A stretch of DNA of 64,000 nt from Eledone cirrhosa (Eukaryota). Each line of letters begins with the position of its first letter. Position 1 is the stretch's first letter. The DNA lies in NCBI GenBank assembly GCA_964016885.1, contig OZ024740.1:277636001-277700000 (forward strand), written 5' to 3'. A model generated the notes under the pieces. The model saw nothing but the letters and a program-made list of their open reading frames with translations. It was not told the DNA's origin and ran no database searches. Of the stretch, positions 6,115-63,697 are shown piece after piece. The translations under genes were made by a program, and so were the position numbers.

Positions 6115-6119
<5 letters not shown>

Positions 6120-9480: not shown

Positions 9481-9587
9481 AAAACTGTTTATATTGTATT
9501 TTGTCTTATGAAGGCATAGCATATTGTTAATATGATATCCCCGAAATATATATAATGAAATAAATATGGTTTTATAAATATAGTTTT
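9481..9587 (+). ncRNA. Type I hammerhead ribozyme in the PLE terminal repeat, core mutated (CTTATGA)
   Basis: Essentially identical to the motif at 41086-41192 except CTGATGA>CTTATGA at 9505-9511. Confidence 0.65.
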
Positions 9588-9690
9588 CCATTTATTTAAT
9601 ATTGTAAATATACTCCAAGTATTTGTCGAGTGCTTTTATATCAGTTATAAATATTTACTAGTTGTAACCCAACAATTTTAAATATAACTT

Positions 9691-9750
<60 letters not shown>

Positions 9751-9755
<5 letters not shown>

Positions 9756-9792
9756 ATACTTTGGGAGGGTCATGTTGCTAAACAAATTCAGA

Positions 9793-9797
<5 letters not shown>
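9751..9797. mobile_element. Minimal two-ended PLE terminal-repeat remnant in (TA)n
   Basis: ttgttatactttgggagggtcatgttgc matches the left end of 37738-38220 and ttgctaaacaaattcagaaac matches its right end. The two are joined at TTGC. Confidence 0.8.
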
Positions 9798-10920: not shown

Positions 10921-11096
10921 AACGAAGGAGTTGTGATAAGGAACCAGATGGACCATAACGCACCAGAGTACTCAATACTTAGGGTAGTAGAGTAGATAAT
11001 AGGAAAATGTATGTCCCCGACGGCAGAGCTCAAGCTAGTCCAGAAATAGCCGTCGAAACGGCTTGAGCTCTGCCGTCGGGGACATACATTTTCCTA
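10921..11096. mobile_element. Short inverted (head-to-head) terminal-repeat insertion in (TA)n
   Basis: Arms 11000-11035 and 11061-11096 are reverse complements. The same family recurs at 21137-21290 and 49409-49511. Confidence 0.75.
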
Positions 11097-11154
<58 letters not shown>

Positions 11155-11252: not shown

Positions 11253-11329
<77 letters not shown>

Positions 11330-15889: not shown

Positions 15890-15896
<7 letters not shown>

Positions 15897-15985
15897 CTAC
15901 TGTACGTCTGTATACATATATGTATGTACGTATACATACTTATATTTAAGTAACAGCCGAATTTCGTTTCATTTTTTCCGTTTAT
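15890..15985 (-). repeat. Diverged dispersed fragment of the ~530-bp hammerhead repeat unit
   Basis: Reverse complement matches the unit start (aaaaaatgaaacgaaatt...gtatacgtacatacatatatgtatacagacgtacagtag). Confidence 0.75.
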
Positions 15986-15989
15986 AATA

Positions 15990-21097: not shown

Positions 21098-21136
<39 letters not shown>

Positions 21137-21137
<1 letters not shown>

Positions 21138-21460
21138 CAAAGGAATTGTGGTAAGGAACCAGATGGACCATAACGCACCAGAGTACTCAATACTTTGGGT
21201 AGTAGAGTGGGAATAGGAAAAAGTATGACCCCGACGGCAGAGCTCAAGCCGTTTCGATGACTATTTCAGTTTAGATTTTTGTTTAGATTTATAGGATGAA
21301 GTTAAAAAAATTCAAGATTAACATTATAAAATTTAAAAAATTAGAAAATTGAAAATTAAACAGTTTAACATTTTTAAGGTTTTTGGGTTGCGAGGTTTAG
21401 TTAAAGAAAGAGTCTTTTATGAAGAAACTTTAAATGTATTGTAGAGTAAAGATTATGTCC
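21137..21460 (-). mobile_element. Terminal-repeat/3' UTR fragment of the 10921 family
   Basis: The first ~115 bp closely match 10921-11035 and abut (TA)n. Confidence 0.6.
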
Positions 21461-22572: not shown

Positions 22573-25500
22573 TTACAACACCTCGTTGTAAACGATGTTT
22601 CTTGTTTTTCCCAGGCGTGCTAATGCGAAAAGACTTTCCCTGCTGCCCACTCTAGAGCACTCAACGTACAATTGTCCGTGGGAGCAACACGGTTCTTCCA
22701 GAAGAAGTCCGGCTACAGAAAGAGTCTGGCCCTGGGACATGTTGATGGACATAGCAAAACTGACCCGAAGTGGAAATTGGAGTCTTCAGAAGGTGAACGG
22801 AATTTCTGCTCCCGAGGGAATGAGACGAATTCTCGGAATGAAAACATCATCACCTTTTCCGCATCCAGAAAGGATTGTTGCCTCGATTACATGTGCAATC
22901 AATTTTTTTACAGCCAGCCGTGTCCCGTTGTACAGTCTTGGTGGTTCCAAATTCCTCAGCAGCATTACAGGGGTGCCAACTTTAAGGAGAAGCATGTGAG
23001 GCGGTAGTCCTGGGGGCTCCAAAGAATTGAGGAACTCCGGCGGAACGTTCACCACTTCATTGGGATCTGGCATCGTGTCAACAGATTTGTAAGTGTGAAG
23101 AACACCAGGAAGGGAGTGCAGTAGTTGGTCGTTGGTTTTGTTAACAGCAGCGTTTTTTGGAGCTAGCACTGCTCTTCAACACAACCATGCGTGGTTCTGG
23201 TAATTGTCTCTCAAATCTGGAAACACTTTCTCTTTCAGCTCCCCCGCAGAATTAACTGAGGTTGAAAATGGCCACACTTCCAACTCTCCTGCAGCATCCA
23301 GAGGTATTTTGCCGTCGCCAAGTTTCAAAATGTCCTGTGCAAATTATGCGGACGTTTGGTCGCCGTGTAATTGAACTCTCATGTTGGTTGTAAGAAGCAG
23401 TGTCCTGACATGGCGCCACAGAGGAGAGGACTTTAAGCATGCTTGTACCTCATCTGCTCCTGTGCCTTTGGGAATGACGGGAAGAGTCTGCCTGAAGTCA
23501 CCTGAAAGCAGAAGCGTAACACATCCCATGGGAGCCTGGCAGCCTCAGATGTCCTTTAGAGCTCTGTTTAATGCGTCCAGAGCTCCCTTATGGGCCTAGG
23601 TTCAGTCATCCCACACAATGAGCTGACATCGTTTTAGGACTTGGCCCTGGTCGGAGGTCGTGCTGATGCTGCAAGTAGGCGTTTCTGACGTTGTTAAATT
23701 GAGAGGCAATTTAAAACTGGAGTGTGCGGTCCTGCCACCAGGCAACAACGTGGCAGCAATTCCAGAAGTGGCAACAGCAACCGCAATGTCCTTGTGCATC
23801 CTGACCTTTGCAAGGAGGAGTCTCGTTAAAAATGTTTTGCCCGTCCCCGCAGGAGCATCCAGAAAGAACATACCTCCTTTTCTGTGGCGCACATGGTCGG
23901 CAACAATGGTGTAAGCATGACGTTGGTCCGGAAGAAGTTGTGGTTCAGTTTCAAGGACGTACTTGGTAAGAGCATCGACGTCGTAGGACGTTTCTCGGAG
24001 AAGAGCTGTAGGAAGTACGTTTGACCCTGTACGGATTGTTTGGGCAGACCATATGAGGGCAAATAATTTCCGCCGAGTGCTGCAACTCTATCCTCTATGT
24101 CAACGCTAGATTGAAGACCACGTCGCTGGTACCTTCCATCTCAGGGTATTGCACTTGCGCCTGACGTTTGTAGTCATCGGATAAGTCATCTTTATACTTG
24201 AGCCATAAAGAGATAGGATTACTCAGTTCGCCAGTTTGCAGCAGTACTGCAAATAGAGATCGTAGGCGCATAGGCGATTGGGATGCAATAGCTTTGAATA
24301 AAGTGGCATCCCACTGCGCACCGTCTTCTAGCAGGCCGCGCTTGAAGCAAGCCTCCCTGTAAGTGCTGCACACAGAACCGTCGGCAGTTCTAAGGTCATG
24401 AAAGGACAGGGGTCCTCTAACCTCATGTAGCAGAAGACGGAGGTAGAAGCACTCATGCTGGTTCGGGTGCACTGTGTATACTCTCCCTAGGCAACTGTCA
24501 AACTTTATACCAGGATGTCCATCAACAGGCTGACCTACCTTTCTGCGAAACCATTGTTTTTTATTCCACGTGTAATAGGACGACACCTGAGGATACAGCA
24601 GGGTTTGAGCAAATGAATCGGCCTGACAAAGTTTGAAGAATGTAGTGAGGGTGGTTTCCCCTGGTTCCGCCACCATTTGAACAGCATTAACGTCAGTGAA
24701 GTACACCCTTTGACCGTTCTCCAGGTGGACTGCGAGCTGTTCAATTGCAGGGTGCCTTTGGTGTATAGGGAAGCCGAAAATACGCCAGAAAGCCTCGTTG
24801 CTGCTGATGTAACGGCCAACTTGGTATTGCGTGACCTCATCACGGCTGTTGTCCTGTTGAAGACCGAACATAGCAGCGTCTGAACCTTTATTCACATATT
24901 TACATATGTACTTGATTGACTTGACGGAATTACAGAACTCGACATTGATGTGAGCACCGAAGGTCTTGGAAAGAAATGGGCAGTATGGCACTATCCATCT
25001 GTTGTCGACCTCGTGCTGTCCAACTGTTGCTGTAAAACCACCGTCCCCGGGTTGGCGTCGCCTGTACAGTGGGTATCCGTCAACGCCAGTCTGGGTTTCT
25101 TGGAGGAACTTTCGGGGAAATCTTTTTCTGCAGACATTGTCGTTCAAGCAAGGTGAGCTTAAATTGAAGCCCCGCCCACATGAACCATGGACCATGTTTG
25201 TCTTCACTATGTCATAGAGGTCTTGTCTATAGACGGATCGGGGAAACTCTGCGGAGATGATGCTGTCAATTGAAGATATTTTTCTTGACAGCCAAATGAG
25301 GATGTGGGCGTGCGGTAGGCCCCTCTTCTGCCACTCTACGGTGTACATGTCGCACTTTACTGGGCCAAAGACTTGGCCTCTCTTGATGAGCTCCATGAGA
25401 TTGATAAGCTTCAGCCGAAAGACTCCGCCAGGAGGTCATGCCTGTCTTTTGCCTGTTGCTCTTGGAACAGTTCTGCCCCGATCTCCTTCCACTTTGGGTG

Positions 25501-26942
25501 GCAAGTGAATGTGATGAACAGATCGGGCCTGCTGTAATGCCGTACGTAGGTCATAGCATCCTGCGTTCTCTCGTGCATGTAGCGCGGACTTCCGGTGAAG
25601 GTGGAGTGCAGAATGCAGACTTTTCCTACGCTGCTGGGAGCTGCATCATTGTTGATGGCATCTCGGAGATGGATGTAGCTCTCGGACCGCAGTTGCCTTT
25701 GATGTGACCGTATGAAACACAGTCTCTCCGATTCCATTTTTGCGCACATATCAACGGCGAATTGCTGAAGTAGGTCTCTTGACTGGTGCAGGTGATTGAA
25801 GAAATCGTGGCGAACCATGAAGGGGTAGGAGTAGAAATCCATGCATGAAACTTGTTTTTTGACGGAGTGTTGAGTGTTTACTGGATTATGCTGGTGAATT
25901 CCGTACTGATAGCCCTCTTCACCATTTACAAAGAGAAGTGGATACTGGAGGGCATCGTAAGACCTATGTGTTTCGCTGATTCGCTGAAGAGTGCTATCTC
26001 GACACTTGAGGATTATGCTGACCCCCATGCATAAGTACAGCGATTTCATTGCATGCAGGATAATTATACCGACCCGGATGCTCCTCAGATAGCATTTTCG
26101 AAGCATCAATTACCACATTAAAATTGGCTGTGGTATCTGCTTCCAAGGCATACATGAAGCTAATGACATAGCTGTTTTTTGTGTGCGGTATGTCTTGCAG
26201 TTTCCTTATAAGCTCGACATTGGTACCGGGTTAAATGGAATTCCTCATGGCTACCTACTCGTTGACATTACCAACAAAGTACAGCTGAAGAAATTGAGGT
26301 GCTTGATAGGCGGCAGGTTGGAGGGATCCGAATCTATCGTACACCTGACCGAACCTTAAATGTGGGCATAAATCCGTCTTCCTTGAGAATGTTCGCCCCG
26401 AAAGATGTCATTTGGAAAGCACAGTTATACCTCCAGATGTAAGTCAGGATATGCCATGACTCCGCAGTACTGCCTGAATATAGGAGCTTCAACCGTTGTG
26501 GTGGATCTTCCAGGGGACGTAATTTTACTTTTCCATTTGCGCAACACAAGCCATGTCTTTCTCCGGGCCACTTTTTTGCATTGCAGAAAGAGCACGTCTG
26601 GATGGCCACTGTAATTAAAGTCGGTTGTACTCGAATGCTTTCAAGGACCATCGTGAGCTACACGGCCTTGAAATACCCTGTCCAAAGGCCCTTCGTTGAG
26701 CATTACATTGTAGTCGAATGTCTCGTTCTTGCGAGGTCTGTGTAGCTCGGACAGTAGCAGTATTCGGTTTGGCGAATGGTTCGTTGATTGTCTGTCTTAA
26801 GTGCTCTTCTGGTGGCAGTACGTTTAGCATCTTGCGACCGTCGAATAGCAGATTCCACTGACGATTCGTTTGCCCGCCCTGTTCGTGTTGTTGCTGCTTT
26901 CGCAGTTTTTCGGCCAATGGAGTATCTCTTCCTTCGAGGCAT
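22573..26942 (-). pseudogene. Helitron Rep/helicase (zinc finger, HUH Rep, PIF1-like helicase), multiply frameshifted
   Basis: Motifs in order: CSFCNAKKW..CCANGKV, PDLFITFTCHPKW, VEWQKRGLPHAHIL (HUH), KYICKYVNKG (Y2), FLDAPAGTGKT (Walker A), GDFRQTLPVI, LRNL..PRLYNGTR, and terminal TRNIVYNEVL*. Confidence 0.95.
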
Positions 26943-27602: not shown

Positions 27603-30208
27603 TCCATCAGACCATGTGAGAGAGTTTATAATCACTCACGCACACATACTCACGCATGCAAACGCACACAAACTCACACACACACACGCGCGCACGTACA
27701 TACACACGCAATAGTTATTCCACTGTCATGTATCTTTGACGCATACAACTCTCAAAAGACGGCGTCTGTCACTCCCTCTATCTCTCTCTCTCTCCCGCTA
27801 TCCCCCTCTTTTAGTCTGTCTGTTTCTTTCACTCTCACTTTCTCTCTGTAACTAGTTCACATTTCTCCCCTCTATCGAAAAATGCTGTGGCGAATGGGGA
27901 GAAGGAGGAGGAGGAGTAGAGAGCCACTTCTTCACTTCGCCTCTCCGTTTCTTTCTCTCCCCTCTCACTCCCTCATTATGTACAGACATTGGCCACTTCA
28001 CTAATTCGATCCCTAGGTCAGAATCATTTGAAATACTTTTTTGCTCAAAACACTTCCGGGGCCACACGGGTTACATGTGTAGAGTTTGATAAAAACGGTT
28101 GGGTACTTCTCGAGTTTTAGGGAAACAGACACACATACAGACATCCTCCGTTTTATATATATAGATTATCTATAATTGTGCTTCATAGAACGCAACGTCA
28201 TCAATGCTGTAAATAAATATATAAATATACACCAGGTCCGATCACAAAGGACACAAACTCCCACTATCACCGCCTCCGTCCTCCTGCCCTCCCCATCTCT
28301 CACTATTATGAGCAAATGGGAACCCACTCGCTTGCCACCCCACAGCCCCGGCGGACATAATAAAGAAGGCGTTTCCACGGAGGATGATAAGGGAGATGCG
28401 TTGTAAGAGCCATTCATTCCAGCTCAAGAGCATTGTCTGTCCGTCCGTCCGTGACGCTCAATTTACATAGAGAGAGAGGGAGCGCCAAGCGAGAGATATG
28501 TACATAGTTAGAGAAGGAAAAAGTACCACCACGTGTTTTCGATGTGACAGAAAGAGGTAGATAGTTGAAAGTTGCGACGTTCCTTCATCTATATATAAAA
28601 AGAAGGGGAAGGCCAAGCGAGAGATATGTACATAGGTAGAGAGTGAAAAGAGAACGCCGTGTGTTTTCCAGGTGGCAGAAAGAGGTAGATAGACATGAAG
28701 TGACGACTTCACGTTCATCGTCATAGATGAGAAAGAGATTTATATAGAGAGAGAAAAGGAATGTGATTTGATTAGAAAGAGAGACGGGGAGATAGAGAGA
28801 GAATGAATGTGTGTGTGAGAGAGAGAGAGACAGAAAGAGGGATAAGACGCAGCCTTCATCTAGTTACTATGTCAGCAGAAGAGCACCCACGTGTCAGGCG
28901 TGACCTGGATGCAGCCCGGCACCCTTCGAGTGTAAAAAAATAAGGGCTAAAACACTCGCTTGGGTAGGGGTTCCTCTCTGAAATCCTTCTGTTTTCTAGC
29001 TCGCCTGAGAGTATCCTGCCACTTATTCGTGACAACAAACGTTAAGACCAGTGGTCAATTCAATTTTGAAGACGGAGACAGGAAATAAGAGTAGAAACGA
29101 TCTAGGGGAATAAAAACGCGTAGTACTTACCATGAAGGCGGTGCTCGAATTGAAAAGTAAAAAGCATCCTTTTTATTCAAATATATTACAATTTGGAGTT
29201 TCTATTTTATATTCATCTAAAATATCATAGTAACATATATAGATACGTTTCAATGATATAATTTCAATATACAAATTTGTTGTGTCTACATATGATTTTT
29301 TAAGTAGTTAGATTCAATTTAATTTGATTGAAATAGTCAAATATTAGCGATCCTAGACTGATATGCAACACATACGATGAAACACGTGTCAGTTTTATGC
29401 AATAAATGTTATTTCCACTCTTGTGGAATGTGATGTTTTGAATAATAATTTTGTGAATTTCTATATAAACTCCGTAAATTGTTACACTTGGAACCACTAG
29501 TAAAACTACTACAGGATTTACCAAATGAAATAATTCGACCGCTGAGTAAAACACTGCTGTAAGCGGCTCCAGATTCTTGTTACATGACGGACACCTAATA
29601 ATGATGTAATTCTCTCTCTCTCACTCTCTCTCTCTCTCTCTCTCTCTCTGTATATATATATAATATAATTAGGATTTAGCTTCATGCATAGCTGTATACA
29701 GATATGTATTGGAATTTCGTATTTCTAAAGAAATACGGTATGTTTATAGGTAAACATACCTATTTCATCAGAAATACGAAATTTCAATATATATATAACC
29801 CTATAACCAAAGTCAACATATGTGAATTAAAACGAAATTAAACTACAATAAACAGACTAAGAAAATACAAAATTCTCAGTTATAAAAATGATTAATTTTC
29901 ACACAAAAACAACGTCAATTCAACAAGAAAATCATCATTAAATCTCTTCATATTTTATATAAAAAAATCTATAAATTACAACTAATAACTGAACCTTAAA
30001 TTTAAACCAAACAATTATTGGTTAAATGAAATTATAATAAAATTAAATAAAACAAAATCTAACCCAATATTCTTGCATTAATGTGACGAATTTCATTAGG
30101 TTTCAGTCTTCCTTTTTTACTTAGTTTTGGTCTTTGTAACTGGCAACCAAGCAATCTGTTCTATAATTATAGAACAGATATAATTATAGAACATATAATT
30201 ATAGAACA

Positions 30209-37703: not shown

Positions 37704-37737
<34 letters not shown>

Positions 37738-37738
<1 letters not shown>

Positions 37739-38220
37739 TGTTATACTTTGGGAGGGTCATGTTGCCAATAAGAAACACACGGAGCAGTTGCTTTCACTCC
37801 AATTTATTATAAATTAAATTTATAAATTTATAAATACCCGGTTGGGGATTCTTTTCTTTGTTCTGTGCCTCTCCTTTATTCTGTCCTACGCCATCTTGCA
37901 CACAACACACACAAAAACAAGATGGCGTAGGACAGAACAAAGGAGAGGCACAACACAAAGAAAAGAATCCCAAGTCACTGAAGAGCTCACAGAATGTGTG
38001 ACAAAAGAACTTTGACAATATATGAACAACCGTCCGGTTGTGGAACCAACCAACCAACCGGAAATTTATAAATTTATAAATTTAATTTATAATAAATTGG
38101 AATGAAAGCAACTGGTGCGTGTGTTTCTTATTGGCAACATGACCCTCCCAAAGTATAACAATATCGATTTCAACACACGTTTTCAGATAAAGATCCTTGC
38201 TAAACAAATTCAGAAACGAA
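37738..38220. mobile_element. Head-to-head inverted PLE-type terminal-repeat insertion in (TA)n
   Basis: 37738-37898 is the reverse complement (with an internal deletion) of ~37918-38160. The right arm has a ~60-nt extra tail and the motif CTGAAGA-gtcaca..tgtgac-AAAA. Confidence 0.8.
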
Positions 38221-39554: not shown

Positions 39555-39615
<61 letters not shown>

Positions 39616-39699
39616 GTTATTCCGGGTTGATTCGGAACACAACCCGGAATAACATATATATTAAAGGAACGATCGACTTTCGTCAAATCGGACCGAAGA

Positions 39700-39905: not shown

Positions 39906-40670
39906 CGTTATTCCGGGTTAAATTAAGAACACAATAAAACTCTCCTACTCCACCACACCTAATCTATCTAGGAATATAGCCAACCACAATTCTAAAAAAT
40001 TAAATAAGCTAACCACCTCCCGACACAATCCCCGGACTGGGCCCCTGTGTAATTGCCTAAAGGAAGCCTGCCCACTTGAAAACAAATGCCTGACAAATGA
40101 TATCGTATACACATGCGATTTCATCTCAGGCACCGACGATTGCAATAACAAAAAGACTTACATCGGCATGACTTCCAATAACTTTAAGACGCGTTGGTAT
40201 GCCCATACCCACTCCTTCAGAAACCGGACAAATCAAACCAGACAACACTCGCCTCCTATGTTTGAGACGTCAAAAGGAACTCCACCCCCTTCACGCTTAA
40301 ATGGAAAATACTCCAGAAAGCGCGCTCCTATAACGGAGGACAGAAGGGCTGCGAACTTTGTATCTCAGAGAGATATGAAATTTTATTCGCCAAGGGGCCG
40401 CTACTGAACAAACTCTCTGAACACTGCCCGAACTGCATGCACAAGAACTATGCAACTTTCAAATACCTTAAGCCAGTGTTAAAGCCCGATGGCTAAAAAC
40501 GACTTCCTCCTTTTAGCCCCTCTACATCCTTCCAACTCCAACCCCACCCATCCTCAACCTGAAATACGGCCACTATGGTTATGTGAGTACCTCTTACCTA
40601 TCTGCATTTTCTGCCTGTAGAGCTGTTTTTATGTGCCTGTGTATAGGCGTATATTTATTGAGTACTTATT
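39906..40670 (+). mobile_element. 5'-truncated Naiad-like PLE, GIY-YIG end only
   Basis: TIKLSYSTTPNL...CNCLKEACPLENKCL..IVY...YIGMTSNNFKTRW..H...CELC..E...CMHK, with a frameshift and a stop. It is preceded by a 14-nt arm cgttattccgggtt also seen at 39615. Confidence 0.85.
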
Positions 40671-40679
40671 TGTATATAT

Positions 40680-40751
<72 letters not shown>

Positions 40752-40855
40752 AAGTTATATTTAAAAATTGTTGGGTTACAACTAGTAAATATTTATAACT
40801 GATATAAAAGCACTCGACAAATATTTGGAGTATATTTACAATATTAAATAAATGG

Positions 40856-40962
40856 AAAACTATATTTATAAAACCATATTTATTTCATTATATATATTTC
40901 GGGGATATCATATTAACAACATGCTATGCCTTCATCAGACAAAATACAATATAAACAGTTTT
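40856..40962 (-). ncRNA. Type I hammerhead ribozyme candidate
   Basis: Reverse complement of 41086-41192 with intact CTGATGA and GAAA. Confidence 0.7.
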
Positions 40963-41085
40963 ATAGATAAATATATTCGACATACCGTAATAAACATCGA
41001 CTTCATTTGAAGAGGTTTACGCTAGCAGTAAACCTCTTCAAATGAAGTCGATGTTTATTACGGTATGTCGAATATATTTATCTAT

Positions 41086-41192
41086 AAAACTGTTTATATT
41101 GTATTTTGTCTGATGAAGGCATAGCATATTGTTAATATGATATCCCCGAAATATATATAATGAAATAAATATGGTTTTATAAATATAGTTTT
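41086..41192 (+). ncRNA. Type I hammerhead ribozyme candidate
   Basis: Stem I TATTTTGT/ATGAAATA with extensions, CTGATGA at 41110-41116, imperfect stem II (catatt/aatatg), GAAA at 41148-41151, palindromic stem III ATATATAT and AUA cleavage triplet. Confidence 0.7.
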
Positions 41193-41205
41193 CCATTTAT
41201 TTAAT

Positions 41206-41277
<72 letters not shown>

Positions 41278-42182: not shown

Positions 42183-42700
42183 TTTTTTGGGGGGGGGCGA
42201 GTGTGTGAGTGTGTGTTTGGGAATGTGTCTGTTGACTTTTGGAATATAGTTTAAGAGAAATTTGAAGATGGTATGATATGCACTAATGAACTGGGTAATT
42301 GCTGGCCTTGTGCCTAAAGTAGAAACAAATATTTTGAACTGGTCTACAGAATTCTCTAGGCCTTTGTCACTAAGTAGAACTTTATAGAATTACCTTTTAA
42401 AGAATTTCCCTTTTCTTTAAATCCATCAACCATGACTGACCCCCAACCATCTTATAGACACCTGAAATATAGGCATTGTTAGCTTAAGAGAAACTTAAAA
42501 ATAAGGAGTGGCACCCCATTCCGAACTTGTTTATAGAATTTTTTCTGCCTTTGTTACGTTAAATATAAATTATAGCTTTAAAGAATTAGCTTTTAATGAA
42601 TTCCCTTTTCTATCAACCAATGACCTCTAACCATCCCACTCCCTACCCTGTCCTACCACCCGAAGAGACCTATAAATACCATATTTATTTTTTGATACCC

Positions 42701-42751
42701 AGATTCCTGATGATTTCTAAAGAATGAAACAGTTCTAGTCCTGTAGAATCT
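42701..42751 (+). ncRNA. Type I hammerhead ribozyme candidate
   Basis: agattc CTGATGA tttctaaagaat GAAA cag-ttctagtc-ctg TA gaatct. Stem I is 6 bp, stem II is TTC/GAA, stem III is ACAG/CTGT, cleavage triplet GUA. It lies ~15 nt before (TA)n. Confidence 0.75.
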
Positions 42752-42763
42752 CATCTATATTCA

Positions 42764-43951: not shown

Positions 43952-44549
43952 TGTACGCATGTGTGTAGAGCAACATAATTAAACGTATCAGCATGTGTGT
44001 AGAGCAACATAATTAAACGTATCAGCTAATAAACCACAATTTTGGTTTTGTAAATTGATCAACATCACAGTACCCACAACGATTTCTATTGAACATAAGT
44101 GTCATACATAAGACTAGAATTTCTCCCATGGAAAACAACTGTCAATGAAAGCAGATTCCAATCGACTAATAAATGTTTCACTAGAAATCCGATAACTACA
44201 GTGACAATGGAGTACCAATTCCCTAGAAATGAATAGCATAGAATATGCTTTGTAAACGGGCAAATGGAAGTAACTGAATACTATTATGGATATTACTGAA
44301 GAAAGGAGGAATATAAGTTTCTCTTTCCAATCATTTAAACAAATTACATGCAATTGAAAGACAACGAAATAACTTTAAACTAGGGATAAACTGGACAACT
44401 TTACTAAAGATAAAGTAATAACGAGTAGACGGATTACAAATTTCAATCAGTATTAAAGAGACCTGTTTCACAAAATAAATAAAATATTCTATCTGCAGAT
44501 TCCATCAGCCAATTCTGAAATGAAGACAATCATATTAGCTAAGGTCAGA

Positions 44550-44900
44550 AAATCTATAAAACTATTCCAGAAGTATTAATCACTGGGTTTAAAGGGAGTC
44601 GCACCTGAAAGAATCATAAGACCAGGTTTGTTCACAAAATGTATTAATTGTATCTGAAATTCCAACGGAATGAAAGAAAGGAATTGAAATTAAAATACAT
44701 AACTAGGACAACTAGCTGGAGGGATTATGACTATTCAGTAGAAAATTTAAGCCGGAATTGCACCCACTCTTTGTAAAAATAAAAGGGAAATAAAAAGGGA
44801 AAGCAGGCTTTTCAATCGCAAATTAAATGATACCAAATTATGTCTATGCTGGGTTGATTTCCAGAAGTATCTTGATAGCAAAGCAAGGATTGCGAAGATA
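44550..44900 (+). mobile_element. Possible decayed LINE RT remnant (R4/Dong-like)
   Basis: Trace LCLCWVDFQKYLDS resembles the W.D..KA.DS motif. No intact ORF. Confidence 0.35.
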
Positions 44901-45134
44901 ATCAGAAGATATTGCAAAATCAAAAATATACTGAAGATGTATTGTGCAGAAATTTCAGAAAATCTTTTGAGGTGGTTTTCTATTCAAATTCAGTAAGTCA
45001 TGTTGGCTCTCTTCCCTTTGTGTCTTTATTATTTGAAATTCCTGCCAATTCCATTTACTTTGTATATCTTGCGAAAACAGATTTCTCAGTAACACACCTA
45101 ATAGATTATCTTTCCCGGGGAAACAGTTATGAGA

Positions 45135-45212
<78 letters not shown>

Positions 45213-45613
45213 AGAAGAAGTTTACGAAATGGAAAACAGTGTTTAGTACTATTATTATAGAAAGCCATATCTTGTGTATAAACATATAAGACAGAAATTT
45301 GCAAACGGTGGTGTAAAAAGGTAACATTATATGCATTTAAAAAAAGAAAAAGTCGTTTTCAAACGATGGTTACAGTATAGAGAACGTTCAATTTTGCTGT
45401 TTAAAAGTTTGTTTACCGACGACGTTAAAATACAGTATATCTCTAAATTGCATAACTTGCAGAATCGATGATTTTATATATATATATATATATATATATA
45501 AGTTGAAAAAAATGAAAACGAAATTTCATTTCTCACTCTTAGTATGGCACTTACTTAAATGTAAGTATGTATGTATACGTACATACATATATGTATACAG
45601 ACGTACAGTAGCA

Positions 45614-45693
<80 letters not shown>

Positions 45694-45866
45694 TATACAC
45701 ATATGCATACAGGTACACATACATATATGCACGCATCAGTTTAGCCGGAGTTTATTATAACGCCGGCCGCTTTGTTCGTTTGTTTGTCAACAAAGCGAAC
45801 AGCCTGAATTTATGCCATACGGTGTTAAGGCAACCACGTCACCTTTTTGTTCAACACTGACACAGG

Positions 45867-45911
45867 AACGATGTACTAGTTTCAAGCTTGTTAGCTATCA
45901 TCAGCACCGTT
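45867..45911 (-). ncRNA. Type I hammerhead ribozyme (unit 1)
   Basis: Minus strand reads aacggtg CTGATGA tagctaacaagctt GAAA ctag TA catcgtt. Confidence 0.85.
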
Positions 45912-46146
45912 TACCCATCTGCCAGATAGTTGAACGTTCGAAAGTATATACTTTCCTTATGAAAATTAACGGCTGAGCAGCCTAATTTGCATATTGAGTG
46001 AGTTAAATCGGTCAGGCATACCGAAAACGATAAGTTGAAAAAAAATGAAAACGAAATTTCATTTCTCACTCTTAGTATGGCACTTACTTAAATGTAAGTA
46101 TGTATGTATACGTACATACATATATGTATACAGACGTACAGTAGCA

Positions 46147-46212
<66 letters not shown>

Positions 46213-46385
46213 TATACACATATGCATACAGGTACACATACATATATGCACGCATCAGTTTAGCCGGAGTTTATTATAACGCCGGCCGCTTTGTTCGTTT
46301 GTTTGTCAACAAAGCGAACAGCCTGAATTTATGCCATACGGTGTTAAGGCAACCACGTCACCTTTTTGTTCAACACTGACACAGG

Positions 46386-46430
46386 AACGATGTACTAGTT
46401 TCAAGCTTGTTAGCTATCATCAGCACCGTT
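46386..46430 (-). ncRNA. Type I hammerhead ribozyme (unit 2)
   Basis: Same motif as unit 1. Confidence 0.85.
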
Positions 46431-46664
46431 TACCCATCTGCCAGATAGTTGAACGTTCGAAAGTATATACTTTCCTTATGAAAATTAACGGCTGAGCAGC
46501 CTAATTTGCATATTGAGTGAGTTAAATCGGTCAGGCATACCGAAAACGATAAGTTGAAAAAAATGAAAACGAAATTTCATTTCTCACTCTTAGTATGGCA
46601 CTTACTTAAATGTAAGTATGTATGTATACGTACATACATATGTGTATACAGACGTACAGTAGCA

Positions 46665-46744
<80 letters not shown>

Positions 46745-46917
46745 TATACACATATGCATACAGGTACACATACATATATGCACGCATCAGTTTAGCCGGA
46801 GTTTATTATAACGCCGGCCGCTTTGTTCGTTTGTTTGTCAACAAAGCGAACAGCCTGAATTTATGCCATACGGTGTTAAGGCAACCACGTCACCTTTTTG
46901 TTCAACACTGACACAGG

Positions 46918-46962
46918 AACGATGTACTAGTTTCAAGCTTGTTAGCTATCATCAGCACCGTT
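46918..46962 (-). ncRNA. Type I hammerhead ribozyme (unit 3)
   Basis: Same motif as unit 1. Confidence 0.85.
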
Positions 46963-47196
46963 TACCCATCTGCCAGATAGTTGAACGTTCGAAAGTATAT
47001 ACTTTCCTTATGAAAATTAACGGCTGAGCAGCCTAATTTGCATATTGAGTGAGTTAAATCGGTCAGGCATACCGAAAACGATAAGTTGAAAAAAATGAAA
47101 ACGAAATTTCATTTCTCACTCTTAGTATGGCACTTACTTAAATGTAAGTATGTATGTATACGTACATACATATGTGTATACAGACGTACAGTAGCA

Positions 47197-47282
<86 letters not shown>

Positions 47283-47455
47283 TATACACATATGCATACA
47301 GGTACACATACATATATGCACGCATCAGTTTAGCCGGAGTTTATTATAACGCCGGCCGCTTTGTTCGTTTGTTTGTCAACAAAGCGAACAGCCTGAATTT
47401 ATGCCATACGGTGTTAAGGCAACCACGTCACCTTTTTGTTCAACACTGACACAGG

Positions 47456-47500
47456 AACGATGTACTAGTTTCAAGCTTGTTAGCTATCATCAGCACCGTT
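47456..47500 (-). ncRNA. Type I hammerhead ribozyme (unit 4)
   Basis: Same motif as unit 1. Confidence 0.85.
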
Positions 47501-47734
47501 TACCCATCTGCCAGATAGTTGAACGTTCGAAAGTATATACTTTCCTTATGAAAATTAACGGCTGAGCAGCCTAATTTGCATATTGAGTGAGTTAAATCGG
47601 TCAGGCATACCGAAAACGATAAGTTGAAAAAAATGAAAACGAAATTTCATTTCTCACTCTTAGTATGGCACTTACTTAAATGTAAGTATGTATGTATACG
47701 TACATACATATATGTATACAGACGTACAGTAGCA

Positions 47735-47810
<76 letters not shown>

Positions 47811-48058
47811 TATACACATATGCATACAGGTACACATACATATATGCACGCATCAGTTTAGCCGGAGTTTATTATAACGCCGGCCGCTTTGTTCGTTTGT
47901 TTGTCAACAAAGCGAACAGCCTGAATTTATGCCAACTTATCGTTTTCGGTATGCCTGACCGATTTAACTCACTCAATATGCAAATTAGGCTGCTCAGCCG
48001 TTAATTTTCATAAGGAAAGTATATACTTTCGAACGTTCAACTATCTGGCAGATGGGTA

Positions 48059-48103
48059 AACGGTGCTGATGATAGCTAACAAGCTTGAAACTAGTACATC
48101 GTT
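48059..48103 (+). ncRNA. Type I hammerhead ribozyme (inverted copy)
   Basis: CTGATGA at 48066-48072, GAAA at 48087-48090, palindromic ACTAGT stem III and GUA site. Stem I is 7 bp and extends via ctggca/tgtcag and gttcaac/gttgaac. Confidence 0.85.
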
Positions 48104-48276
48104 CCTGTGTCAGTGTTGAACAAAAAGGTGACGTGGTTGCCTTAACACCGTATGGCATAAATTCAGGCTGTTCGCTTTGTTGACAAACAAACGAACAAAG
48201 CGGCCGGCGTTATAATAAACTCCGGCTAAACTGATGCGTGCATATATGTATGTGTACCTGTATGCATATGTGTATA

Positions 48277-48358
<82 letters not shown>

Positions 48359-48411
48359 TGCTACTGTACGTCTGTATACATATATGTATGTACGTATACA
48401 TACATACTTAC

Positions 48412-48479
<68 letters not shown>

Positions 48480-49367
48480 ATATATTGCGAAACATTGGCT
48501 ATTGTTTTCCGTCTCTAGATTTTTGCAGCGAGTGAAAGAGTAAATGAGAGGTTAAAACATTCTCAGATAAATAGCAAGCTTATATGAAACACGTATTCTC
48601 AACATAACACTTGTGTGATATTCCTTAACTCTTTCATCAGATATATATAGCTCAAGGGTCAAAGGTTAGTGCTGAAGCAAATAAGTGAAACATTCACTTA
48701 GTCATTAGAATTCGCTATACTAATAAAAACCCATTTTCCTTCAATCCACAGAGATAGCTTGATTCACTCTAATATTCACTTCTCCTCATGAATATTATAT
48801 GAAGCATTGACCTATACCAACATCCTTAAATATGCATAAATATAAACATATATAAACTGACGTTTCAGATTGCACGTTATCAAATATTCTGAAACAATCA
48901 TAATTAATATATTTATATTATATTGGATCGTCAAATATGAAATATGTAGATATTTGTAGAGGAAAAGTAAATTTCTACAAATTTCATACTTGACGACCTA
49001 ATATAACGAATTATCATGTATCTCCATATCTAAACGATTCATCTAAATATTATTGGATGTAATCAAAATTATGAATGATCTTAATCAGTCATGATTAATT
49101 ACTTTTCATCGTCTAACTATGGTGGCCTTGCATTTTGATTGGAAGGTTGTAGCCTATAATCTGATCAGGTAACTTAACTAATGGCTCTAATTGGGAAATA
49201 TAATGGTAAAAATATGCAAGGCTCTATATAAATAAGAAATGAAGAGGAACATATGCAGGTCAATTTTTATTCATGACGTCGTATATTTGATATATCTATA
49301 TATATATCTATATATCTATATATATATATATATCTATATATATCTCTCTCTCTGGCTCTCTCTCTCA

Positions 49368-49731
<364 letters not shown>

Positions 49732-49879
49732 TTTGAGTTTATCTTGGTTGTATACCAACACCTCAGTATGCAGGCTGGAGCACTCGACGAAGTGCGCGCT
49801 GGTTGGTTTGGTTACTCCGGAGTAGTGTAAAATAAAGTTAAATAAAAAGTCAAATGATTAAAATTTACCTTCGTTTATT

Positions 49880-49936
49880 ACTGCTATATATATATTTCAG
49901 TGACAGCCATCTTTGGCTGTGACCTCTTCAGGCAGT
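49880..49936 (-). ncRNA. Type I hammerhead ribozyme candidate
   Basis: Minus strand reads actgc CTGAAGA ggtcacagcca-aaga-tggctgtcact GAAA tatatata TA gcagt. Confidence 0.75.
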
Positions 49937-50149
49937 TTGAATTAGTATGGTATAGACAAGTGTATAATATTGTCAATACTCTGATTTGCCCAGTTCCTGG
50001 TTGGGTTATTATTTCACTGAGGAACTGGAATCATATGACTCCAGTTCCTCAGTGAATTAACAACCCAACCAGGAACTGGGCATATCAGAGTATTGACAAT
50101 ATTATACACCTTAACAACCTATGTACTTGTCTATACCATACTAATTCAA

Positions 50150-50204
50150 ACTGCCTGAAGAGGTCACAGCCAAAGATGGCTGTCTCTGAAATATATATAG
50201 CAGT
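50150..50204 (+). ncRNA. Type I hammerhead ribozyme candidate
   Basis: actgc CTGAAGA ggtcacagcca-aaga-tggctgtctct GAAA tatata TA gcagt. Confidence 0.75.
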
Positions 50205-50249
50205 AATAAACGAAGCTAAATTTTAATCATTTGACTTTTTATTTAACTT

Positions 50250-50281
<32 letters not shown>

Positions 50282-56344: not shown

Positions 56345-56684
56345 TGTGTGTGTGTGTACTAAATGAGAAGAGAGAGATATCTAGAGCTTGTATTACGAAA
56401 TTCCAGTAGATGGATTTCAGAAAGTGATCTGAAAATATGTGGCAGCTATTGGGTGAATAATAAATAGAAGGGTGTGTGATATGCATATCTCACTAAGGAA
56501 CAAATCCATGATGTGTGAAAACAATGGGTTTGGCTGGCAGATTCAAAGGTGCTGTCCTTACAAGTCACTCTGTGTTTTAATGTCGTACGTGTGCCGGTTG
56601 TTTGTCTTTGTGTGTGATTGGGTGTATTTTTCGTTGTCATCAGTCTGTGCGTGTCTCTGAATATATATATATATACATATATAT

Positions 56685-57341
56685 AAGGAAAAAAGATGGA
56701 TCGAAAATGCAACTGTAGTCTTTTTAAAAAATATATATATATTTATTTGGTTCCTTTACCGGTTTCGCAGTTCTTCTGCTTTTCTAAACTAGAGTTGAGA
56801 TGGAGGGTTTGTGGTTTTTCTCACATCTGGTTTGTCTTTGAATGTTACTTGTTTTATATGGAAAAAAGTGGTTCGAAATGCCAGGTTTTTAGAGAAGTAA
56901 TTTGATTGGTTGGTGAATAAGTATAATACATTTCGCGCCAGTTCGCGTTACAAAGTTCTTCAAACAAAGAGGGGGGGGGTCATATATAAGTGAAGTTTGG
57001 TTGGTTGATGCAGTCACGTGAATAAGCACATCACCTTTCGCGCCAGTTTGTGTTTGAATTTTTTTACTTTAAAAAAGTGCTCACGAAGGCTTTTTTTAAA
57101 AATATAATTTGATTGGTTATAAATGAAATTATGACTGTCATGTGAACAAGTTCATTAAATTTTGCGCCCGTATTTGGGAATTTATTTTGTAGCCTTTTAG
57201 AGAATTTTGTGCCAAACAAAAGATAATGGTCAAGAGAGAATTGTTCTGGTTCAGTGAATATGGCTGGTTCGCTGGGGTGCCAGAATTCATACTTTCTATT
57301 GAAATAAAGAAAGTAGAGATATGTATGTTTATTTGTGTGCT

Positions 57342-57372
<31 letters not shown>

Positions 57373-58322
57373 GAATATGATTCTATTAGTAGAAATGGGG
57401 GAGGGAGTTATGTGTGTATGGGTGTTATGTGTGTATGTGTGTGTGTGGGGGGGGAGTATTTATTCGTATTTGTTCTGTTGTATTCTCAGTGGAAAGGTAA
57501 AATGGGAAGACTTGGAATTTGGGTGTCTTATTACTTGCGCATATGTCTAGATGTGCACAAACCCACAACAAAAATGTGGTCGCTCTAATTGTGGAACCTA
57601 CACTCACCTCATTGAAGGTAACACGTATACATTTCAATCAGGACAACATTTTGCTGTAAAAATTCACTTCACTTGCTCATCAAAAAATCTACTTTATACC
57701 ATTAAACGTAAAGGATGCAATGAAGATTATATAGGACAAACTAAACTCACACTCAGAAACAGAATGACAGTTCATCGCCAACAATTACGAGATCCAACCA
57801 CGGCACAGATACCACTAAGTGCACATCTAGACATATGCGCAGGTAATAAGACACCCAAATTCCAAGTCTTCCCATTTTACCTTTGCGCTAACAATACAAC
57901 AGAACAAATACGAATCAATAAGGAAAATATGTTTATTCAAAAGTATAGACCAGCATTAAATATAATTTAATATATATTATGTCAACACCATAACATTCTA
58001 ACCATCAAAACAGACACATGCATACACACACACACACTTAACACCTACTTTAGAAAATAAAAACTAAATAAACCGTAACATACGTTAATACTCTATCACC
58101 TTAACATGCTACCCACACCCCCCACACACACATAACTCCGTCCCCATTTCTACTAACGGAATCATTTCCCTACACACACAAAAAAAATATATATATATAT
58201 ATTCTCTCCATCTTAACATGCTAACCATACTCCCACACACATATACACACAAACACATAACACCCACACACACACACACACACACAACTCCCTCCCCTAT
58301 TTCTAATAATAGAATCACATTC

Positions 58323-58359: not shown

Positions 58360-59240
58360 ATATATATTCTCTCCATCTTAACATCCTAACCATACTCCCA
58401 CACATACACACACACACACACACAACTCCCTCCCCCATTTCTACTAATAGAATAATCTTCCTACACACACACACACAAGCACACAAATAAACATACATAT
58501 CTCTACCTTCTTTATTTCAATAGAAAGTCTGAATTATGAGACACTCCAGCGACCCAGCCATATTCACTGAACCAGAACAATTCTCCCCATCCCATTTCTC
58601 TTGACCATTATCTTTTGTTTGATACAAAATTCTCTAAAGAGCTACAAAATAAATTCCCAAATATGGGTGCGTTTTTAATTAATTTGTTCACGTGACAGTC
58701 ATAATTTCATTTATAACCAATCAAATTACATTTAAAAAAAAAAGCCTTCGTGAGACACTTTTTATAAGTAAAAAGAAATTCAAACACAAACAGGCGCGAA
58801 AGGTGATGTGCTTATTCACGTGACTGCATCAACCAACCAAACTTCACTCATATATGAAAAAACAACCTGACCGCTCCCCACCCCCCTCTTTGTTTGAAGA
58901 ACTTTGTAACGCGAACTGGCGCGAAATGCATTATACTTATTCACCAACCAATCAAATTACTTCTCTAAAAACCTGGCATTTCGAGCCACTTTTTTTCCAT
59001 ATAAAACAAGTAACATTCAAAGACAAACCAGATGTGAGAAAAACCACAGACCCTCCATCACAACTCTAGTTTTTAAAAGCAGAAGAACTGCGAAACCGGT
59101 AAAGGAACCAAATAAATATATATATATTTTTTAAAAGACTCCAGTTGCATTTTCGATTTCATCTTTTTACCTTAAACTTTCACTCGTGTAGGACACCTCG
59201 GTTATTTTTCATTTTAAAAAAAACCTCACTTTCTAATACA
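56685..59240 (+). mobile_element. 5'-truncated Neptune-like PLE with a large inverted upstream copy of its 3' end
   Basis: 56685-57557 is the reverse complement of ~57819-59172, with loss of part of the repeat-rich UTR. The right arm has a ~65-nt tail and contains a GIY-YIG ORF. Confidence 0.85.
57551..57970 (+). pseudogene. PLE GIY-YIG endonuclease fragment
   Basis: KCGRSNC linker, then FTCSSKNLLYTI..KGC.EDYIGQT...RMTVH, ending E..FI....PALN. Confidence 0.85.
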
Positions 59241-59242
59241 TA

Positions 59243-60129
59243 CGGGGTGTGTCTGAAATGTTCCAAGACTGATGTCACAAAAGATTTATTTAAAACACAA
59301 ACTTCACACTAAGAGTTTTCACTTTCAAAGTAATCCCCCTGGTGTCTAATGCACTTTTCCATCTTTTTCTGCCACGCTTGCATGCACTCCTGGAAGGATT
59401 CTTCCGGGATCCTCCGCAGTTCTGTCGTCACGGCCTTTTTGATGTCGTCCCCGTCTTCAAAACGGGTCTTCTCCGGGTCGTACTCGAAGATCCATAACTC
59501 ATCACCGGTGATGACTGTCCCTAGCAAGTCTGGTTCGGTTTCAAGACGCTCGAGGATGTCCTGGCATACTTGCATGCGTCGACCCTTCTGGTCATCGTTC
59601 AGCTGTTTTGGCACCATCTTCGCGCAGACTTTCCGCATGTCCAAATTTTCTGTGAGAATCTTCCAGACGCTGTCCCGATTCATGCCCAGCTCATTTGCCA
59701 TCAGTTGAACAGTCAGCCGACGATCGCTACTGCACCCTCTGCCTGACGCGCTCAACGTTAACCTCAGTCCTGGTTGTTGAGGGCCTTCCGCCCCTGGCTT
59801 CATCTTGCATCACTCAAAAGCACGTGAGCGTGACATCGTCTCATCTCCATACACTTGCTGCTGTAATCCCAGTGCTTCTGACGGAGTTTTCCCCAACCGT
59901 ACCAGACACTTCAAGTTTGTTCGTTGCTCTGTGCTCATTGCTTAACGATCTGAAACAGAGGACATGTATATAAAATTATGAAGAAAAAGGTTTGATCGCT
60001 GCAGAGAGCTAAGATTACAGTTACATACTCCAGGGGGATTACTTTGAAGGAGAAAACTCTTAGTGTGAAGTGTGGGTTTGAAATAAATCTTTTGTGACAT
60101 CAGTCCTGGAACTTTTCTGACACACCTCG
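59243..60129 (-). mobile_element. Internally deleted mariner element with ~100-bp inverted ends and TA flanks
   Basis: MSTEQRTNLK start at 59938, GRP motif, KMVPKQL, ITGDE.W.FEYDPE fused directly to RFE...C...GDYFE. Inverted ends are 59243-59343 and ~60030-60129. Confidence 0.9.
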
Positions 60130-60146
60130 TATATATATATATATAT

Positions 60147-61588
60147 AGTTAAAGAAAGAAGAGTAACATGGGATTGGCTATACAATTAGGTCTTTATTTA
60201 AAGTACTGACAATTGTTTCGTTGATCAGGTGTGTCTAGAGTTTGCTAATCGCTTGAGGTTGCGTCAATCGATCTCCAATACCATTGTTTACCACTTGTCA
60301 ACACATCAGTGTATGTAGATATGAAAATAATTCACTCGAAGCAAGACTTATATAGAAAAAACAGCGTAAAACCAAAACAATAACATCAATAATAAAATAG
60401 CGTATAATTAAAACAATAACATCAATAATAAAACATGTATGGTAAATAGATAGAGAAGTTATAGATGTAAAAAGTAAAAAGTAAAATATAAGATAGGGTA
60501 CATTAAAAATAGTAAGAACATGAGGAAATGGAAAATATAACGAAATAAATAAGTGAGAAAGTGCAAGTAGATATTATTAGTTTTTGAGTAAGTGTTTTTA
60601 TAAGGATTCGTTGGTGCTAACATGATAAACCAGATTTGAAATGTAGATAAATACGTGTAGAGGGTCCGATAAAAGAAAAGACAATGAATTAGAGATTAAT
60701 TGATGTATACATGTATTATATTTATTGGATAGGGATGACGGGACGTTTGATAGACGATTGTTGTAAATGTTTTGCTGATTGTTCTATCTTAATGGGGTTG
60801 ATGGAGAAAGGGTGCAAGAAGTGTATATAGATTTATGATCCAGTGAACAGTTGGCAGTTTGATAGCTAATAGCGGTGCGATGTTGTTAATTTTATATGTT
60901 AAAATCTATTACTAATTTTGGGATTGCTGGTTCAAATCATGGTGGTTTGAAGTTCTTTTAGCTATTTTATGCCTAGAAAATAGATCTTTCTATTTTACTG
61001 TTAAGCAGCATCCTATCGTACCTTAAAATATGTAGTAGTTCTAAATTACAAAGCCCGTAGTGGGACATACCGTTGCTGTAGGCTTTTGCTACCGATAATT
61101 TCGACCAGCTAATATTATATTCTAGGTTTTTGTCCTTAAGATGCCAGATTTTATTGGCGAGTGTTGTAGAGTTCTCCAGTGCACGGTTCTTCATGGAGCT
61201 TCTTAAACTCCCCAGCTGTGGACCCTATGTAGTGCCAGGTAGATTTGCCTGAACTCACAGTACACAGGTATACCATACTCGAATCCAGGCATCTATTCCG
61301 TAGTGGGCACTTATCTGGTAGGTGGCAATTACAATTTGAGGTTTTATTTTGTGCAGGTTCGTCGTTGCGGTTTTGTAAGTTGTTGTGGGTTGGTTGTGAT
61401 TTTGGCCTGTTACTCTTCTTTCTTTAACTATTATTACTCCAAGTATAACCAGAATAGAAATTACCGCGATCTCGCTGCATAACTATGGAAATATCTTGTT
61501 GAGTCAAACAAAGCCGTACGTTAAAACTATCCACCACGCGGAGTACTCATAACCTCTAACTGGGTTACCTATAACGATAACATGTTAT

Positions 61589-61981: not shown

Positions 61982-62794
<813 letters not shown>

Positions 62795-62839
62795 ATATAA
62801 ATGGATACAGTTTAGTTAAAAGGAATTTATTGACACGCC

Positions 62840-62876
<37 letters not shown>

Positions 62877-63341: not shown

Positions 63342-63697
63342 CAGATTAAAGATTTAATCTGTTTCGCCCTGAAAATTGTGTTTGTGTTTGTAACAGATAA
63401 TCCGTAGGCGAGAAATAAGATCAAATGGAACAAACACATACAAGTGGTGTGAGTGGATATGCTAAAAATAATAGCCTTAACACACCCAAATTATAAGCTC
63501 ACCTTGTTATGCTAGTATTAAAGCTATTATTTTTAGCATATCCACTCACACCACTTCTAACGTCCAGCGCACGAGGTGAGATTTTCATTCGTGTGGCTTT
63601 CAGTTGTATGTGTTTGTTCCATTTGATCTTATCTCTCGCTGGATTATCTGTTACAAACACAATTTTCAGGGAGAAACAGATTAAATCTCTAATCTAA
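63342..63697. repeat. Fold-back inverted repeat (MITE-like or inverted terminal repeat)
   Basis: 63342-63481 and ~63517-63697 are reverse complements, with a ~50-bp indel. Confidence 0.75.

Follow-up and report, generated by a model that had tools for sequence, protein, structure and literature searches.

The window, by which we mean the whole 64-kb stretch of DNA that was analysed, contains a head-to-tail array of a non-coding repeat made up of four full units of ~530 nt, a partial fifth unit and an inverted arm (Table 1). The six copies (five units and the inverted arm) differ only in the length of an internal TA tract, in one additional A in unit 2 and at a single A/G site, which reads A,A,G,G,A over units 1 to 5 and A in the inverted arm. 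This near-identity excludes a chance origin of the array. A-to-I editing was considered as the source of the G variant and rejected, because the change on the template strand is U to C. There is no protein-coding frame of at least 150 aa within the array, so it has no RT/GIY-YIG ORF, and its layout is one of plain head-to-tail units in which we noted no LTR, PBS or PPT arrangement.

Table 1. Coordinates of the array, of its parts and of related features in the window
Feature	Positions	Strand	Remarks
Whole array	45500-48416		Four full ~530-nt units, partial fifth unit, inverted arm
Left target half, (TA)13	45475-45500		Abuts tailed end, shares 3 nt with the element
Unit 1	45500-46031	-	532 nt; 35 TA repeats; ribozyme sense is the minus strand
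Unit 2	46032-46550	-	519 nt; 28 TA repeats; one additional A in A-run
Unit 3	46551-47082	-	532 nt; 35 TA repeats; G variant
Unit 4	47083-47620	-	538 nt; 38 TA repeats; G variant
Partial unit 5	47621-47934	-	314 nt; 33 TA repeats; final letters ...TTTATGCCA
CA/TG microhomology at inversion junction	47933-47934		2 nt; fits forward unit and inverted copy alike
Inverted tail-less arm	47935-48416	+	482 nt; 36 TA repeats
Tail on tailed terminus	45500-45555	-	56 nt; missing from inverted arm; 58-60 nt with TA overlaps counted
Right target half, ~(TA)30	48415-48475		Shares 2 nt with the element
Minimal type I hammerhead, unit 1	45865-45913	-	
Minimal type I hammerhead, unit 2	46384-46432	-	
Minimal type I hammerhead, unit 3	46916-46964	-	
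Minimal type I hammerhead, unit 4	47454-47502	-	
Minimal type I hammerhead, inverted arm	48057-48105	+	
Second family member	15890-15987	+	5'-truncated; other subfamily; ~37-nt tail
Element B	40750-41217		Tail 81 nt
Element C	~49731-50256		Tail up to 97 nt
Element D	37735-38220		Tail 56 nt
Element E	10922-11097		Tail 77 nt
Element F	56684-~59235		Tail ~61 nt; arms 56684-57558 and to ~59235
Four coding PLE remnants	~6118-7804, 12435-15510, 39925-40466, 60988-61345		Match five database proteins
Fifth coding PLE remnant, in element F	57551-57970		C-terminal GIY-YIG with CCHH residues

An earlier note on this DNA, made from the letters alone, had described a fifth unit that breaks at 47934 and passes through a 2-nt CA into an inverted copy, which ends about 55 nt short of the other terminus, with (TA)n against both ends of the array. 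This anatomy was confirmed in every part: the CA can be assigned to either side of the junction, the end at 48416 is the equivalent of 45556 and a tail of 56 nt remains on the opposite terminus, and both outer ends abut the microsatellite, with 45498-45499 common to the left tract and to the terminus at 45500. The break in unit 5 lies 56 nt before the expected position of its hammerhead cleavage site. Starting 4-6 nt beyond the head-to-tail junction, the inverted arm runs as far as a template TA within a hairpin, and the two arms are offset by 218 nt at the inversion. The 56-nt tail would be the interval between two start sites of reverse transcription. The break also falls inside a predicted 9-bp long-range helix formed by the tail of the neighbouring unit and 47398-47406, downstream of the hammerhead, and this helix is a possible site of RT stalling.

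As for the flanks, an identical 9-mer is found at 45128-45136, left of a (TA)36 tract at 45138, and at 48474-48482, right of the right-hand TA tract; non-microsatellite matches of even 7 nt are rare (~3 among 3655 tract-flank pairs). This pair may mark the target-site duplication left by an earlier insertion, the array having later made use of the TA tract of that insertion, in which case the TA tracts fall within the duplication. In a search for a single older element made up of both outer flanks, an 81-aa frame in the left flank had 0 relatives, and the translated outer flanks gave no further match in the 64-kb window. Between the two left-hand TA tracts, 45211-45475 encodes on the minus strand the C-terminal end of a Hydra-type endonuclease, with weak matches (E 0.003 to 60976-61053, E 0.10 to P0003) and no recognisable pLTR. 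Farther to the left, ~44000-45136 is what we take to be a decayed LINE-like stretch, with 0 database matches.

Each of the four consecutive full units, and also the inverted arm, carries a complete type I hammerhead with a 7-bp stem I, CUGAUGA, a 4-bp stem II, GAAA and the palindromic ACUAGU, with cleavage predicted after GUA. Owing to the palindrome, stem III is possible only between two hammerhead copies. The minimal PLE core (CUGANGA...GAAA...UH with palindromic helix III) is therefore present, in a minimal form that lacks the loop 1-loop 2 contacts of the canonical type I motif of the 2020 definition; the 2026 retrozyme definition, in its accessible text, takes in minimal motifs and would accept it. 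The extra nucleotide after position 9 and the G10.1-C11.1 pair are both absent, and U opposite U flanks the 4-bp stem II. Rfam gave 0 matches over the whole window at gathering score; at E up to 10, 47900-48300 gave 23 matches, mainly microsatellite noise together with one weak hammerhead, Hammerhead_HH9 with 18.5 bits (E 0.057, under the gathering score) on the hammerhead of the inverted arm. Pattern searches for the hammerhead found 0 loci in metagenome contigs and 0 in viral contigs. The hammerhead strand folds well below its shuffles (z -6.3, over 361 nt outside the microsatellite), the antisense strand less so (z -3.1), and 12 control windows ranged from -4.6 to +2.7. Folded as a circle, the cleavage-to-cleavage monomer (GC 0.33) is predicted to be 71% paired, with a z of -7.2 (TA tract shortened, 40 shuffles). 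For the hammerhead by itself, folded freely, no signal emerged (z -0.3), and the minimum-energy fold predicted for it differs from the active one. Judged by these sequence features, the unit classifies as a non-LTR retrozyme, in effect a putative non-autonomous PLE.

The same combination of ends is seen elsewhere in the window. Among 15 regions, which were chosen from a self-comparison of the window and not examined blind, a tailed arm together with an inverted tail-less arm is present in six (the array and elements B, C, D, E and F), mostly small non-coding elements. Ends recur between copies of one family: in D the tail-less end in 3/3 and the tailed end in 2/2 copies, in E the tailed end in 3/3 and the tail-less end in 2/2, and in B the tailed end in 2/2. 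Elements B (also at 9411-9697) and C are fold-back inserts with minimal hammerheads on both arms, having a TA palindrome as stem III and a long stem II, and the inversion of B sits on a natural short hairpin. Family D includes a minimal insert of ~45 nt (9748-9797) with (TA)n on both sides, in which ~29 nt of the tail-less arm run through a TTGC overlap into the final ~20 nt of the tail. Family E consists of three short inserts (10922-11097, 21135-21267 and 49409-49511), one of which, by eye, has a hammerhead half-core with palindromic stem III. Other motifs near TA tracts are a single type I hammerhead-like motif with non-palindromic stem III (42697-42755) and hairpin-like inverted repeats with no clear tailed/tail-less layout (29702-29794, 39608-39661, 62537-62844 and 63343-63695).

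At all seven ends where the run-on template is known, the insert begins at a template TA. By script, insert and (TA)n overlap by 2, 3, 2, 2, 4 and 3 nt at six of these; the end of element F was scored 0 because one substitution intervenes, past which 2 nt overlap. Random cuts reach a 2-nt overlap with a probability of 0.16-0.32 each, and the product is 6e-5 for the six ends and 1e-5 for seven with F included. The overlap fits priming by a nicked TA end on a template UA, and could also have come from later growth of the tract out of a terminal TA.

Regarding possible helpers, 4/5 of the database proteins matched by the first four coding PLE remnants have the Hydra-defining motifs DKT and CxCx5C, and the remnant in element F appears Neptune/Nematis-like by motif reading. 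Pfam, run on eight frames, returned 0 families for the four PLE1/PLE2 frames and a weak GIY-YIG for PLE3. Hydra and Neptune types, both microsatellite-targeting, occur in this window. The earlier statement that the coding PLEs share the array's geometry clearly holds for just one of the five remnants, that in element F: no matching inverted arm pair was found for PLE1-3 (Hydra-type), and the self-comparison gave none for the other remnant. An inverted pLTR-like arm of PLE2 type at ~5005-5196 stops ~135 nt before the PLE2 3' end. Searched against the 64-kb window, the core of the unit found only the second family member and noise, with no similar coding PLE end, and the array tail compared with six other tails in the window was within the shuffle range in 6/6. 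The proposed link to a helper consequently stands at the level of the PLE order and not as sequence similarity to any coding PLE end in the window. Also in these regions, the pLTR-like arms at 5005-5830 and 11327-11673 belong to one Hydra family (65% alike over 223 nt) and by eye have an apparent hammerhead with a very long stem II; 11461-11509 repeats at 15811-15859. A mariner-like element with inverted ends (59236-60136) is inserted at the tailed end of element F, and the window further holds Helitron remnants (23602-26109, Pfam Helitron_like_N) and a LINE RT/RNase H fragment (8-1452, Pfam RVT_1).

Four sequencing runs of the 23 listed (X1, X4, X6 and X21, the last being RAD raw reads from a different sample with the same species label as X1) were compared with one unit-length stretch, 47290-47735, less the 47670-47735 segment that holds the tail-less site. 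Matches numbered 4179 contigs in X1, 44 in X4, 2 in X6 and 52,838 reads in X21, depths that are not copy numbers; the retrozyme family is abundant, diverse and high-copy. At 47337-47338 almost all of the X1 depth has different letters, making the present copy a minority variant, and X1 therefore cannot be taken to carry it. None of the 12 core positions of the hammerhead is among the 40 variants listed of 90, which is only suggestive of a core kept in the family, since ~1 core match is expected by chance and the result is not significant alone; N7 varies. X4 and X6, which have other organism labels, contain a near-identical unit, with a 134-nt contig free of differences at depth 195 in X4 and two contigs only in X6. 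In two X4 contigs the sequence 5' of the hammerhead is unrelated and may be the 3' UTR of a helper or reflect a truncation junction.

Strand switches account for 13 of the 15 joints listed (124 more stand in the full list, and 56 others at repeats were excluded), all of them from X21. For ten of the 13, the nearest AATT library cut site is more than 3 nt away. Six start at 47334, a position at which this copy and most of the family part company and which is probably a boundary of the alignment. The switches occur at varied points, which indicates that inversion recurs in the family. Their offsets are 104-245 nt as against 218 nt here, but RAD size selection biases these offsets, and a regular loop size at the inversion was for this reason set aside. 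The junction of this array is not among the 15 listed joints, none of which comes from X1, X4 or X6. The second family member in the window bears on the earlier suggestion that other copies should have fixed ends flanked by (TA)n: its similarity stops at about the tailed register of the array (2/2 copies), and its 3' flank is AT-rich and not (TA)n. The tail-less end is represented by one copy, the array itself, and no empty (TA)n site was seen.

The reading that we prefer, with a probability of roughly 60%, is that the array is a young copy of this high-copy hammerhead repeat, an RNA of more than one unit having been inserted whole by a borrowed PLE RT/GIY-YIG protein. From the observed anatomy, overlaps and family strand switches we infer the enzyme, the form of the RNA and the order of events. 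A PLE enzyme, probably a dimer, would nick both strands of a (TA)n tract, and each nicked 3' end would pair by 2-3 nt with UA in the RNA and prime one cDNA. The cDNA with the distal start would run through four uncleaved hammerheads and 314 nt more (4.6 units) and become the tailed arm, while that with the proximal start, 56 nt upstream in the small hairpin, would yield the 482 nt of the tail-less arm. Annealing of the cDNA 3' ends at CA/TG followed by fill-in would then produce the inversion. The short arm contains an intact cleavage site and extends past a head-to-tail junction, so the template exceeded one unit; it would most likely have been a linear read-through transcript of a heterogeneous donor array. 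Published work offers precedents for these steps: the PLE protein studied by Frangieh 2024 (PMC11167929), for which a dimer is predicted, cuts each of the target strands and extends it, the tail of the element is bounded by two internal start sites on the RNA, uncleaved RNA is the main substrate and no read ends at the hammerhead cleavage site. The view put forward earlier, that PLE machinery inserted the array, is in this respect well supported by the published end geometry, the two starts of reverse transcription, the other elements in the window and the strand switches in the family. Some points run against the preferred reading. The same study describes initiation with no target homology, unlike the overlap of 2-4 nt between array ends and (TA)n, the 56-nt tail exceeds the published 30-40 bp, neither unit nor tail resembles the coding PLE ends in the window, and the hammerhead has U.U where PLE hammerheads usually have G10.1-C11.1.

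The order A,A,G,G,A calls for a donor multimer whose units differed, for duplication or conversion at the locus later on, or for an error in the consensus. With the same PLE enzymology, a short insert of one to two units and an inverted arm might have been the starting point, the array having grown later in DNA by unequal exchange or slippage. We consider this unlikely, while giving it some weight: such growth has been raised for retrozyme arrays in the accessible text of Li et al. 2026 (10.64898/2026.07.22.740005), the long TA tracts would favour exchange, and G in the adjacent units 3 and 4 alone is what one mutation plus local duplication or conversion would give. A heterogeneous donor accounts for the G equally well, however, the head-to-tail junction was already in the template of the inverted arm, and the intact termini and junction and almost identical copies leave little time for growth. 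As to the form of the RNA, the earlier note had proposed a multimeric or a circular template; the greater-than-unit template was upheld, and a circle is not favoured over a linear multimer, given A,A,G,G,A, as a single error-free monomer circle gives identical units apart from slippage. An improbable course of events, in our estimate, is that a dimeric PLE protein copied a ~530-nt hammerhead circRNA by rolling-circle reverse transcription in one step, with one cDNA primed from each nicked (TA)n strand at two fixed UA starts and a microhomology join between them; if true, the array would directly document both the retrozyme life cycle and the origin of the tailed and inverted ends of PLEs. We hold it decidedly improbable that the template was a hammerhead-ligated circular monomer of ~530 nt, with 4.6 laps of copying primed at one nick and 0.9 lap at the other. 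Such a template is that of the published retrozyme model, and the highly paired fold (71%, z -7.2), the five hammerhead sites read through intact and a scatter of TA lengths such as RT slippage on one template would leave all agree with it, yet it requires a repeated identical error or a later event for the G of units 3 and 4. Further, minimal hammerheads with palindromic stem III cleave weakly and as dimers (PMC4209133, in its accessible text), the hammerhead of the unit has no G10.1-C11.1, and the dominance of uncleaved RNA as substrate, with no read ending at the cleavage site (PMC11167929), also speaks against it.

The remaining explanations dispense with an inversion made during insertion. 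An array inserted or grown without it might have acquired the inversion in DNA, by fold-back or template switch at a break, the 56-nt shortfall being accidental. Such events typically involve short microhomology at the junction and palindromic TA tracts, and the inversion of element B sits on its own natural hairpin. This explanation does not predict ends that are fixed between copies, TA overlap at 7/7 ends, (TA)n on both outer sides or six such regions in one window, nor does it sit well with arms offset by 218 nt, and we regard it as very improbable. We attach equally little credence to a sequencing or assembly artefact, that is a fold-back read or a mis-joined repeat. Assembly is difficult through long TA tracts and an inverted repeat, and the junction was absent among the joints listed from four runs, but short raw reads of another sample have the same kind of switch in other copies. 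From a fold-back read one would expect a symmetric palindrome that leads back into the flank it came from; the arms of this array are offset, their TA tracts count 33 and 36 repeats and the flank is unrelated, all of which makes such an artefact unlikely. The number of units in the array could be mis-assembled.

Both the PLE geometry and the link between retrozymes and PLEs are already published, as are multicopy non-autonomous PLEs, and in this sense the array is confirmatory and not surprising. The literature searched, mostly open-access papers, yielded no description of a retrozyme array with this PLE footprint, a tailed end and an inverted tail-less one. In the accessible text of PMC7229834 and 10.64898/2026.07.22.740005, the movement of animal retrozymes is argued from co-occurrence and pLTR similarity, and an array apparently bounded by two PLE start sites adds locus-level support for PLE insertion of a greater-than-unit retrozyme RNA. 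It also bears on a point left open in the 2026 paper, so far as its available text goes, namely insertion whole as opposed to local growth (10.64898/2026.07.22.740005). Since the family is young and abundant, mapping of its ends and ordering of its variants could test a linear against a circular template, as well as the origin of the inversion from two cDNAs.

Compared with known systems, the array stands closest in kind to the animal non-LTR retrozymes described by Cervera and de la Pena 2020 (PMC7229834), as far as that text is accessible. It shares with them non-coding repeats arranged head to tail, a single type I hammerhead in each unit, strongly self-paired RNA (here predicted), many copies and PLEs in the same genome, with a GC that is low here (33%). 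It differs in its unit of 519-538 nt with an internal (TA)28-38, in a minimal PLE-type ribozyme and in being known here from DNA; the accessible accounts put retrozyme units at ~170-400 nt (PMC7229834) and at 51-972 bp (Li et al. 2026, 10.64898/2026.07.22.740005). PLEs were put forward as retrozyme helpers in 2020 (PMC7229834 and PMC7761336, available portions), and Li et al. 2026 (10.64898/2026.07.22.740005), in the part accessible, treat retrozymes as non-autonomous PLE derivatives on the basis of co-occurrence and pLTR phylogeny, suggesting local amplification and leaving the mechanism open. Inverted or tailed array ends are not described in the searchable text of PMC7229834 or 10.64898/2026.07.22.740005. 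The accessible text of a 2026 octopus repeat annotation (PMC13282606) reports recently active Penelope families and mentions neither ribozymes nor retrozymes.

Among PLEs themselves, Craig et al. 2021 (PMC8557442) describe, in the text available, tandem copies with an inverted 5'-truncated copy at the 5' side and a 30-40-bp tail at one end, and call the origin of the inversions undefined. The EN+ elements treated there (Hydra, Neptune and Naiad) have in common with the array the tandem and inverted copies, the tail at one end, the (TA)n target and a hammerhead near the 3' end, whereas the array has no RT/EN ORF, a tail of 56 nt (~37 in the second copy) and no sequence link to a named clade. 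The minimal PLE hammerhead type of Cervera and De la Pena 2014 (PMC4209133, accessible part) has the G10.1-C11.1 pair, and pairs of hammerheads on opposite strands 100-700 bp apart are recorded in the same text. Frequent multicopy head-to-tail insertions are reported for non-autonomous Chlamys PLEs in the accessible portions of the literature (PMC8557442; also PMC8969392, 10.1101/2022.05.23.493040 and PMC9940879). Those of Chlamydomonas (MRC1 and Chlamys-N4; 10.1101/2022.05.23.493040, as available) differ from the array in being algal, in targeting (C)n or (CA)n and in mostly having no hammerheads. According to these partial accounts, non-autonomous Chlamys elements also resemble their helper at the 3' end, a similarity that the array unit does not show to the PLEs of the window.

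In L1 twin priming, two target-primed cDNAs are joined by short microhomology to give a 5' inversion, and priming of the second takes place within the same RNA at a position that varies. The array differs in that its cDNAs would have begun at fixed sites 56 nt apart and copied overlapping sequence. Poseidon PAc of Anolis, as assayed in vitro (PMC11167929), cuts at ATT, uses no target homology and starts ~90 nt from the hammerhead, whereas the ends of the array have 2-3 nt in common with (TA)n and are ~320-380 nt away from the cleavage site. With this element the array would share two internal starts of reverse transcription that bound the tail, a start in a stem-loop, extension from nicks in both target strands and read-through of the hammerhead.
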